Assembly (NCBI RefSeq): GCF_044324785.1
Contig: NZ_CP172127.1
From: Escherichia coli
Lineage (GTDB): Bacteria > Pseudomonadota > Gammaproteobacteria > Enterobacterales > Enterobacteriaceae
Length of the DNA: 64,000 nucleotides
Direction: 5' to 3' (one strand)
A program made the position numbers and the translations under genes. The notes beneath the pieces were generated by a model. That model was not told where the DNA came from and made no database searches. It saw only the letters and a list, made by a program, of their open reading frames with translations. This document shows, piece by piece, positions 15,206 through 17,205 of the stretch; the stretch's first letter is position 1, and each line of letters begins with the position of its first letter.

Positions 15206-15368
15206 AGCTCCTCCTTAATGACAGGGTTGCGAAGCCCTGATTCTCTTCAGGGTGAATATTAAAGATAACACAAACACCGCGTAACGATTTGATAACAACC
15301 CAAATTGATAAAAGAGGAGAATCCTTGTGGCAAAGCAAATGAAAACCCCGCCGCAGCGGGGTCAGGGA

Positions 15369-15464
15369 TCAGTGAGTAATGATCCAGAGGAGTTCGGCCC
15401 AGAAGAGCATCGACAGAGAAAATGCGCCCATCCAGGACCAATATTTCATATTTGTGTTGATCAT
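15369..15464 (-). CDS. candidate 31-codon small hydrophobic protein (MINTNMKYWSWMGAFSLSMLFWAELLWIITH)
   Basis: Hand-translated minus-strand ORF with plausible SD (aagggtg, about 6 nt spacer); below the 60-aa track cutoff; identity uncertain. Confidence 0.3.
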   Translation of the reverse strand: MINTNMKYWSWMGAFSLSMLFWAELLWIITH

Positions 15465-15577
15465 AGGCTACACCCTTAACGGTTATTACTTTGTGTTGAG
15501 ATAACTCAACCTGTTATTGCTGCGGTGTATTAAAAGCCCTTTAATTCATTAAAAATGGGTAATAAGAATGATGATAA

Positions 15578-15745
15578 TTATTGTTTCGGCTGATCATCTT
15601 CAGCAAACAGTTCTATAAAGGCTTGCTGCTGCGTTGTTAGTTGCCAGTCGTCTGGAATAACGACGGAACATTCCCGTTTCGTTTCTGGTTCATTGTCACT
15701 ATGCTGACATAATGGTGACGACTCCAGTTGCTCCTGACCGACCAT
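15578..15745 (-). CDS. yciX: small protein YciX
   Basis: ORF 15578..15766 trimmed to MVGQEQLESSPLCQHSDNEPETKRECSVVIPDDWQLTTQQQAFIELFAEDDQPKQ. Confidence 0.7.
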   Translation of the reverse strand: MVGQEQLESSPLCQHSDNEPETKRECSVVIPDDWQLTTQQQAFIELFAEDDQPKQ

Positions 15746-15747
15746 AG

Positions 15748-15888
15748 TTATCCCCACACTTTCCAAATCAGCAGTGCGACAACCACCCAGAAAAGAGCAG
15801 AACCAAGAAATACCGCCAGCCAGGCTTTGCGTTTTAATTCAGGGTCCCGGCGGGGTTCCTGATTTCCAGAAGGCATTGCTAACCTCAT
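15748..15888 (-). CDS. ymiA: small membrane protein YmiA
   Basis: Hand translation MRLAMPSGNQEPRRDPELKRKAWLAVFLGSALFWVVVALLIWKVWG; stop sits 2 nt before the yciX ATG. Confidence 0.7.
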   Translation of the reverse strand: MRLAMPSGNQEPRRDPELKRKAWLAVFLGSALFWVVVALLIWKVWG

Positions 15889-16206
15889 ATAATCGCCATC
15901 ACTTATCAGCAAGACGTTGAACGATTGGTGTAATTAATCATACGATGAGACAAATCCTAAAGAAACTTTAGTCAAAAATCCAGCGAATTTACGAATCGTC
16001 TCCAGTGAATAATTCAATCTTTTGACCTGAAATAGATATTTGAAAACTGGAGTTTGCGAGGCGGGTAATTAGACACTACTTTACAGGTAATTTACCCTAT
16101 AAATATGAGGGATAAAAATATTGTGCACGGTATACAAATAAGCAACAAAAGAGAATATATTCCGGCACCTTCGCTACATAAAAGGTGCCGAAAATAACGC
16201 AAGAAA

Positions 16207-17205
<999 letters not shown>

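Follow-up and report, generated by a model that had tools for sequence, protein, structure and literature searches.

The three tiny minus-strand ORFs at 15369..15888 of the window (the whole 64,000-nt stretch of Escherichia coli DNA that was analyzed) are the genes ymiA, yciX, and ymiC of the known E. coli locus cysB-ymiA-yciX-ymiC-acnA. The three ORFs are real, but they are already annotated, and their recognition is a correct, ordinary finding: all of them appear in today's annotation of K-12 and in RefSeq, and experimental work on YmiA and YmiC has been published. We consider it very probable that this known locus is, as a whole, a terminated operon encoding functional peptides with a role in envelope or Mg2+ stress. 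From 16300 down to 15000, the minus strand has the following layout.

Stop codon at 16207, minus strand: end of cysB (sequence read).
318 nt, minus strand: spacer between cysB and ymiA (sequence read).
15748..15888, minus strand: ymiA coding sequence (b4522 homologue), ATG start, 46 aa, MRLAMPSGNQEPRRDPELKRKAWLAVFLGSALFWVVVALLIWKVWG (ORF list, annotation, and profile models).
15578..15745, minus strand: yciX coding sequence (b4523 homologue), ATG start, 55 aa (ORF list and annotation).
113 nt, minus strand: spacer between yciX and ymiC (sequence read).
15471..15477, minus strand: Shine-Dalgarno-like AAGGGTG of ymiC, 6 nt before the ATG (sequence read).
15369..15464, minus strand: ymiC coding sequence (b4741 homologue), ATG start, 31 aa, MINTNMKYWSWMGAFSLSMLFWAELLWIITH (annotation, profile models, and published sequence).
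15335..15363, minus strand: intrinsic terminator, an 8-bp GC stem ACCCCGC/GCGGGGT with loop TGCG, followed by TTTTCATTTGC (terminator scan).
15205, minus strand: ATG of acnA, 163 nt downstream of the ymiC stop.

RefSeq annotation has ymiA, yciX, and ymiC in precisely the corresponding places in both strain N3 and K-12 MG1655, in the latter of which they carry the locus tags b4522, b4523, and b4741, respectively. The cysB-acnA interval of 1011 bases was matched in 5421 of the 5426 complete E. coli genomes, with 100% identity in strain N3. The first-pass annotation had named ymiA (46 aa) and yciX (55 aa) with 2 nt between them, and had placed a third ORF of 31 codons with a plausible Shine-Dalgarno sequence between yciX and acnA. 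Its ORF coordinates and sequences are all correct, the two names are those used in N3 and K-12, and the third ORF is found at 15464..15369 with AAGGGTG upstream. The known E. coli small membrane protein that it suspected there is YmiC (b4741, YP_009518771.1), which has the same position in K-12 and N3; in the comparison with K-12 annotation that had been proposed as a check, the ORF at 15369..15464 is annotated, the opposite of the outcome named as counting against it. This has little weight as a discovery; a reader working from sequence alone had placed a 31-codon gene correctly.

The length of these ORFs is in itself no better than chance, as 45 ORFs of at least 20 aa in the ORF list overlap the same 2.3 kb, and the case for the three genes therefore rests on other evidence. 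What sets ymiA, yciX, and ymiC above this background is RefSeq annotation, curated profile models, conservation in approximately 34 species, and published evidence of translation.

YmiA is 100% identical to K-12 YmiA and matches Pfam PF22868 over residues 1-46 of 46 (125.9 bits, cut-off 27) and NCBIfam NF000536 over residues 5-46 (96.8 bits, cut-off 30). The start of ymiA has been revised repeatedly in the literature, giving proteins of 42, 54, and then 46 aa, and the 46-aa start is supported by tetracycline-inhibited ribosome profiling (TetRP), the tryptic peptide LAMPSGNQEPR detected by mass spectrometry, and initiation-complex profiling (Weaver 2019). The NCBIfam model differs from this annotated and experimentally supported E. 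coli start in that it begins at the third Met (42 aa), whereas YmiA of most other genera has a possible start seven codons further upstream (53 aa). At that upstream position, an in-frame ATG preceded by a GGTG Shine-Dalgarno sequence is present in 24 of 30 species and opens a 53-aa reading frame starting with MISDxDC. Escherichia has CTG in place of this ATG and has lost its Shine-Dalgarno sequence, which is consistent with the experimentally supported 46-aa start. Published Ribo-seq with initiation inhibitors documents translation of YmiA, and targeted (PRM) mass spectrometry detects the protein at roughly 1000-3000 copies per cell. Sequence features indicate a basic N-terminal tail (residues 1-23, pI 10.8) and one C-terminal transmembrane helix. 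A GFP fusion of YmiA is found at the cell periphery, deletion of ymiA has no phenotype, and overexpression of YmiA prolongs the lag phase (PMC11429745).

YmiC is 100% identical over 31 aa to the K-12 protein, the feature of which (b4741) lies at 1335572-1335667; we find no difference from the known YmiC and regard this as the same gene in another E. coli strain. The protein matches Pfam PF23694 over its full length (residues 1-31 of 31, 87.5 bits, cut-off 27) and NCBIfam NF041484 "small membrane protein YmiC" (66.3 bits, cut-off 42), and its one hydrophobic stretch of approximately 23 aa is consistent with a single-pass small membrane protein. Both experimental checks that the first-pass annotation had proposed, ribosome profiling and epitope tagging at the native locus, have been carried out in the literature. 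YmiC was earlier an unidentified positive in TetRP data, and its validation came from the chromosomal (SPA) tagging, by VanOrsdel et al. (2018), of an ORF with identical sequence between yciX and acnA (PMC6001520). The ORF was also seen in retapamulin Ribo-RET data, and GFP-YmiC localizes to the cell periphery; neither deletion of ymiC nor overexpression of YmiC has an effect (PMC11429745). The family is narrow, since a HMMER scan of 1.84 billion representative proteins returned only 10 relatives of YmiC, all of them close.

YciX is 96% identical to its K-12 counterpart over 55 aa, with two substitutions and with the same gene order and the same 2-nt junction to ymiA. The protein is acidic (pI 4.05) and hydrophilic, AF2 predicts a single short, conserved helix at residues 38-48, and profile searches matched it to no Pfam or NCBIfam family. 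We found no direct protein-level evidence for YciX in the literature. The yciX gene has been counted in the Salmonella Cpx regulon and is strongly down-regulated when lipoprotein transport (Lol) is inhibited. The TAA stop of ymiA is separated from the ATG of yciX by exactly 2 nt ("ct"), and the yciX Shine-Dalgarno sequence (TGGGG) sits within the final codons of ymiA. In every species compared, yciX starts 1-3 nt past the ymiA stop with its Shine-Dalgarno sequence in the terminal codons of ymiA. Translationally coupled genes typically have this arrangement, and yciX is positioned for such coupling to ymiA.

To survey the locus in other species, we used a degenerate DNA pattern for the acnA N terminus, which yielded 120 loci from species-representative genomes. 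The order cysB-ymiA-yciX-ymiC-acnA is kept in approximately 34 species of Enterobacteriaceae, with a cysB-acnA gap of approximately 1.0-1.1 kb; the genera with the full order include Escherichia, Citrobacter, Salmonella, Enterobacter, Kosakonia, and Phytobacter as well as Leclercia, Cedecea, Buttiauxella, Siccibacter, Trabulsiella, and Atlantibacter. All three ORFs are open, of near-constant length, and in the same order in approximately 30 species. The ymiC gene always starts with ATG and has 30-33 codons (34 species), and a purine stretch of the GGTG/GGTA/GAGT type lies at the same distance from this ATG in all species compared. The core K-Y-W-S-W..A-F..S..F-W of YmiC is invariant and a Glu/Gln inside the helix is conserved. 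Intact in 33 species, yciX shows the lowest conservation among these genes, with 32-51% identity outside Escherichia; its N-terminal half varies, and a nearly invariant motif, P-x-S-W-x-L-T-x-Q-Q-x-A-F-I-D-x-F-x-E-D-D, is found at the C terminus. Pooling Nei-Gojobori counts from 14-16 species pairs, we obtained pN/pS ratios of 0.14 for ymiA, 0.43 for yciX, and 0.23 for ymiC, from which we conclude that all three are selected as proteins. Losses were also seen: the E. albertii type strain has cleanly lost all three genes by a deletion from approximately 15922 to approximately 15365 and retains a promoter fragment and the terminator, Raoultella and one "Enterobacter" have only a divergent YmiA, and ymiA, yciX, and ymiC are absent from the loci of Xenorhabdus, Edaphovirga, and Pluralibacter gergoviae.

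Mg2+ starvation induces 17 small proteins, with YmiA and YmiC among them, and reporter assays show that transcription of ymiA and ymiC is PhoQ dependent (PMC11429745, a 2024-25 preprint). In the same work, reporter activity came from the region upstream of ymiA only, that of the region just upstream of ymiC being negligible. With the sole active promoter region located upstream of ymiA, the three genes behave as one operon, ymiA-yciX-ymiC, on the basis of reporter fusions in a preprint (PMC11429745). Two features stand out in this upstream region.

15920..16085, minus strand: conserved non-coding block of approximately 165 nt, the ymiA promoter/regulatory region, with conservation equal to or above that of the coding sequences.
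15946..15959, minus strand: TAGGATTTGTCTCA, the reverse complement of the RcsB ChIP motif TGAGACAAATCCTA, within a nearly invariant block.

In Salmonella, RcsB binds TGAGACAAATCCTA abutting the ymiA transcription start site and represses ymiA (PMC7913699); by homology, we infer that the E. coli ymiA transcript would start at about 15946. A YmiA-family gene is also the most strongly up-regulated gene in the comparison table of a study of a Klebsiella ompR mutant. Scanning with the PhoP box pattern (T/G)GTTTA-N5-(T/G)GTTTA returned only matches with three mismatches upstream of ymiA, a class close to chance expectation (202 in the window vs. 157 expected). In view of the lack of a convincing PhoP box upstream of ymiA, the dependence on PhoQ may be indirect.

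At the other end of the unit, the terminator begins 6 nt past the ymiC stop and folds with -23.3 kcal/mol (z = -4.2) in a 61-nt stretch that includes an upstream hairpin. In most of the other species compared, and in nearly every genus, a hairpin with a T-tract occupies the same place; the stems have no sequence relationship to one another, and the T-tract is as a rule longer than that of E. coli, which is interrupted (TTTTCATTT here, TTGTCATTT in K-12). The distance from the end of ymiC to acnA ranges from 137 to 331 nt across species and is mostly 156-225 nt. Downstream of the terminator, the conservation profile is almost invariant over the 70 nt ahead of the acnA leader (15318..15250), a block corresponding to the proximal promoter already known for acnA. 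This is read most simply as a unit of three genes that ends at a terminator of its own, with acnA beyond it transcribed from an independent promoter. A distal acnA promoter was reportedly placed by Cunningham, Gruer and Guest in 1997 approximately 407 nt upstream of acnA, a position that presumably falls inside yciX. Transcripts from such a promoter would carry ymiC and would need to read through the terminator to reach acnA; as the E. coli terminator is rather weak, read-through from this promoter would put ymiC on some acnA transcripts. A Fur-box cluster predicted at -371 of acnA was considered and set aside; it falls in an AT-rich stretch after the yciX stop, and this stretch is not conserved between genera.

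The region between yciX and acnA also contains conserved RNA features, which are as follows.

15513..15531, minus strand: conserved leader motif AATACACCGCAGCAATAAC (conservation profile and alignment).
15495..15510, minus strand: conserved leader hairpin GTTGAG-TTAT-CTCAAC (alignment and covariation).
15335..15537, minus strand: match to Rfam RF02079 "STnc180", spanning the ymiC leader, coding sequence, and terminator.

The match to RF02079 covers model positions 1-208 of 208 with a score of 202.7 bits (gathering score 50, E = 6e-44). Of 13 further species with ymiC that were scanned, 12 have a hit of the model at the ymiC locus and one, Buttiauxella agrestis, fell below the gathering score; the model has no match in E. 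albertii, which lacks ymiC. STnc180 was first predicted as an orphan promoter/terminator pair and was among the sRNA candidates followed up in a deep-sequencing study of Hfq coimmunoprecipitates (Sittka 2008). In that study, the STnc180 probe detected RNAs of 500-2000 nt in Salmonella that were described as "likely processed mRNA species" (Sittka 2008). Rfam files STnc180 as an sRNA gene, yet its central half is the translated ymiC coding sequence; rather than a discrete non-coding small RNA, the entry holds a complete translated ORF with coding-type substitutions. Because only mRNA species of 500-2000 nt were seen and the ymiC ORF lies inside, we regard the sRNA label of STnc180 as a misnomer. 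The equivalence of STnc180 with the leader, coding sequence, and terminator of ymiC is mildly new.

Across species, the consensus of the leader motif is AATACACC(R)CAGCAATAA (15531..15513). The hairpin next to it is a covarying one, which is likewise mildly new: in an alignment of 24 species, two-sided changes are seen at five of its six pairs (helix 2), and pairing is kept in 81% of cells. RNAalifold returned no structure on the raw MAFFT alignment of the leader, and the covariation of the hairpin is seen with a trimmed alignment. The ACACC of the leader motif is complementary to the GGUGU of the ymiC Shine-Dalgarno sequence, and this pairing is predicted in many species and drawn in the Rfam consensus. 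Nevertheless, cognate and shuffled ACACC/Shine-Dalgarno duplexes have similar energies (-7.67 vs. -7.27 kcal/mol, permutation p = 0.10), and this helix (helix 1) is 64% paired with almost no two-sided changes, the pairing not being maintained where the Shine-Dalgarno sequence differs. As neither significant covariation nor a pairing advantage was found, we do not claim that ACACC masks the Shine-Dalgarno sequence. The spacer motif was also tried as a sigma-70 promoter (TTGTAC ... CAATAA) and rejected, with a spacing of 21 nt in most genera that shifts with a 3-nt indel.

The leader motif, the covarying hairpin, and the orphan promoter/terminator prediction for STnc180 would be compatible with a ymiC transcript that is separate or processed. 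It is conceivable, although we think it improbable, that motif and hairpin act in cis as an RNA element through which ymiC is regulated independently of ymiA-yciX. Such an element might work through masking of the GGUGU Shine-Dalgarno sequence of ymiC by the ACACC motif or might define a processed, stabilized transcript of approximately 200 nt. If so, the name STnc180 would stand for a small mRNA under separate regulation that is possibly bound by Hfq, and neither for an sRNA nor for a passive operon tail.

Two rival readings take the YmiC peptide not to be the main product. In one, ymiC is mainly a regulatory uORF (leader peptide) whose translation controls terminator read-through into acnA, the peptide being a by-product. 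Like the leader ORFs in mdtU-mdtJI, mgtL, and trpL, ymiC is short, has a transcription 3' end close behind it, and precedes a larger gene, and ymiC-acnA is listed among the validated small ORFs that are followed within less than 200 nt by an RNA 3' end, on which ground ymiC has been treated as a possible uORF (Adams et al. 2021). In addition, with the hairpin starting 6 nt past the stop codon, a terminating ribosome would cover its 5' arm, the interrupted E. coli T-tract would permit read-through, and the distal acnA promoter, in its reported position, is upstream of ymiC. However, YmiC is a conserved transmembrane helix whose invariant core and pN/pS of 0.23 are not expected of a pure translation sensor, the peptide of which should vary freely outside regulatory codons, and it is a stable, membrane-localized protein (PMC6001520, PMC11429745). 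Unlike the leader ORFs named above, ymiC has no runs of regulatory codons, and we saw no conserved alternative (antiterminator) pairing in the folds that were made, which did not amount to a dedicated search. The distance from the ymiC stop to the hairpin varies from approximately 4 to approximately 25 nt, in most of the other genera the terminator is strong and canonical and has a long T-tract, acnA is served by a highly conserved proximal promoter that lies beyond the terminator and is its own, and E. albertii keeps terminator and acnA promoter without ymiC. Given the conserved peptide, the lack of regulatory codons and of a visible antiterminator, the varying distance, and the strong terminators elsewhere, we judge a uORF to be unlikely.

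Less probable still, and by a clear step, is a non-coding or dual-function sRNA, STnc180, to whose Hfq-dependent base-pairing the ORF would be secondary. The full-length match to RF02079 with its conservation in other genera, the inclusion of STnc180 among the candidates of the Hfq study, and the covarying leader hairpin with the conserved A-rich motif would all agree with such an RNA, but the Salmonella transcripts were called processed mRNA by the authors themselves (Sittka 2008), the ymiC ORF is translated (PMC6001520, PMC11429745) and has a coding-type substitution pattern, part of the Rfam consensus structure falls within the ymiC coding sequence, and no target of STnc180 is known. We consider it hardly credible that over-annotation of an intergenic region has turned chance reading frames into one or more of these genes. 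ORFs of such length are common in these 2.3 kb, and yciX, without a profile family or protein-level detection and with the lowest conservation and the highest pN/pS of the three, would be the obvious suspect. This is countered by the constant length and order of the open frames in approximately 30 species, the nearly invariant C-terminal motif of YciX, and the conserved 1-3 nt junction with the Shine-Dalgarno sequence inside ymiA; YmiA and YmiC, for their part, are directly supported by experiment.

Conservation, selection, and the terminator thus favor a small envelope-stress operon that would encode functional peptides over a mere leader ORF of acnA. In such an operon, YmiA, with its basic cytoplasmic tail and one transmembrane helix (N-in), would act as a peptide rather than as a translation sensor, and the same would hold for YmiC with its one transmembrane helix and conserved Glu/Gln. 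YmiA and YmiC resemble MgrB, MgtS, and PmrR in having less than 50 aa, a single transmembrane helix, and induction by low Mg2+ through PhoQ. The known partners of MgrB, MgtS, and PmrR are PhoQ, MgtA/PitA, and LpxT, respectively. By analogy with these PhoP-controlled proteins, YmiA and YmiC most likely would bind to some larger protein of the inner membrane and tune it when the cell is under envelope or Mg2+ stress. They share no sequence similarity with MgrB, MgtS, and PmrR, alongside which they have been studied (PMC11429745), and they differ from them in having no known partner and no deletion phenotype. YciX may be a mostly disordered acidic cytoplasmic partner produced in step with YmiA. 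AF2 modeling of YciX joined to YmiA by a (G4S)4 linker, on a paired alignment of 30 species, showed no confident contact between the two (mean pLDDT 61, pTM 0.25) and was confident only for the YmiA transmembrane helix and the short YciX helix, and so the pairing of YciX with YmiA is a guess.

The comparative evidence speaks for ymiC as a functional peptide gene at the end of a terminated unit, an argument that is mildly new. The locus is controlled by several envelope-stress systems (PhoQ, with RcsB, OmpR, and Cpx in relatives), which makes its products reasonable, if unexceptional, small-protein candidates.

Two non-coding elements lie on the minus strand around the ymiA-yciX-ymiC cluster:

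15920..16085, minus strand, non-coding block preceding ymiA, about 165 nt long
15495..15531, minus strand, conserved motif AATACACCGCAGCAATAAC plus a hairpin in the yciX-ymiC spacer

The upstream block is conserved across genera at least as strongly as the coding sequences, and it contains, at 15959..15946 on the minus strand, the sequence TAGGATTTGTCTCA; read on the opposite strand, this is the motif recovered by RcsB ChIP at the ymiA transcription start site in Salmonella. Two further stretches in the block, GTCAAAAGATT and GTAAATTCRCTGG, are invariant. No clear PhoP box was found in this block, although PhoQ dependence has been reported; the best PhoP-box-like match of the region, TGTTTGTGTTATCTTTA (two mismatches; 15260..15276, minus strand), lies not upstream of ymiA but within the nearly invariant proximal acnA promoter block (15318..15250) and may simply belong to known acnA regulator sites.

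Comparison of the cysB-acnA loci (15888..15912, minus strand, with L005-L120 from representative genomes) showed that 24 of 30 species have an in-frame ATG with a GGTG Shine-Dalgarno sequence seven codons before the position where E. coli ymiA starts; a 53-aa product beginning MISDxDC would be read from it. Escherichia has TTG-CTG at this position and has lost the Shine-Dalgarno sequence. The absence of the upstream start in Escherichia matches the shorter, experimentally supported 46-aa ymiA start in E. coli, and the difference between the species explains past conflicting annotations of the ymiA start.

The spacer hairpin, GTTGAG/CTCAAC, carries compensatory changes in five of its six pairs among 24 species. 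The spacer also includes ACACC, complementary to the ymiC Shine-Dalgarno sequence GGUGU; covariation for this pairing was not significant (p = 0.10). Directly 3' of the yciX stop codon (about 15545..15580, minus strand) lies the AT-rich stretch TAATTATCATCATTCTTATTA, which corresponds to a cluster of Fur boxes that a published prediction places at -371 relative to acnA (PMC2189734); this stretch shows no conservation between genera.

The region 15335..15537 (minus strand) is a full-length match, at 202.7 bits, to the Rfam family RF02079, "Enterobacterial sRNA STnc180," and spans the ymiC leader, the whole ymiC coding sequence and the terminator. Because of this span, and because an STnc180 probe detected only mRNA species of 500–2000 nt in Salmonella, this sRNA family appears to be a segment of a small-protein mRNA. 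The T-tract of the terminator (15335..15345, minus strand) reads GGGGTTTTCATTT here versus GGGGTTGTCATTT in K-12; both E. coli tracts are interrupted and far weaker than the T6-T7 of most other genera, which suggests that termination into acnA would be leaky in E. coli.

The cluster itself varies among relatives. In Raoultella planticola (L067) and Enterobacter sp. JUb54 (L104) the cysB-acnA gap lacks yciX and ymiC and holds just a divergent YmiA-like ORF (42% identity; 55 aa counted from the upstream ATG, beginning MISDIDYMKFAMSQ). In Leclercia adecarboxylata NCTC13032 (L106) ymiA and yciX are apparently frameshifted, giving aberrant products of 53 aa and 84 aa, and both are intact in a sister Leclercia genome (L120); the frameshifts reflect either pseudogenisation or assembly indel errors. 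Escherichia albertii NBRC 107761 (L006, 6662..6923) has a clean deletion of ymiA-yciX-ymiC, equivalent to about 15922..15365; part of the ymiA promoter block is still there, as are the terminator that follows ymiC and the promoter of acnA. Given this clean loss, the cluster is dispensable in a close relative.
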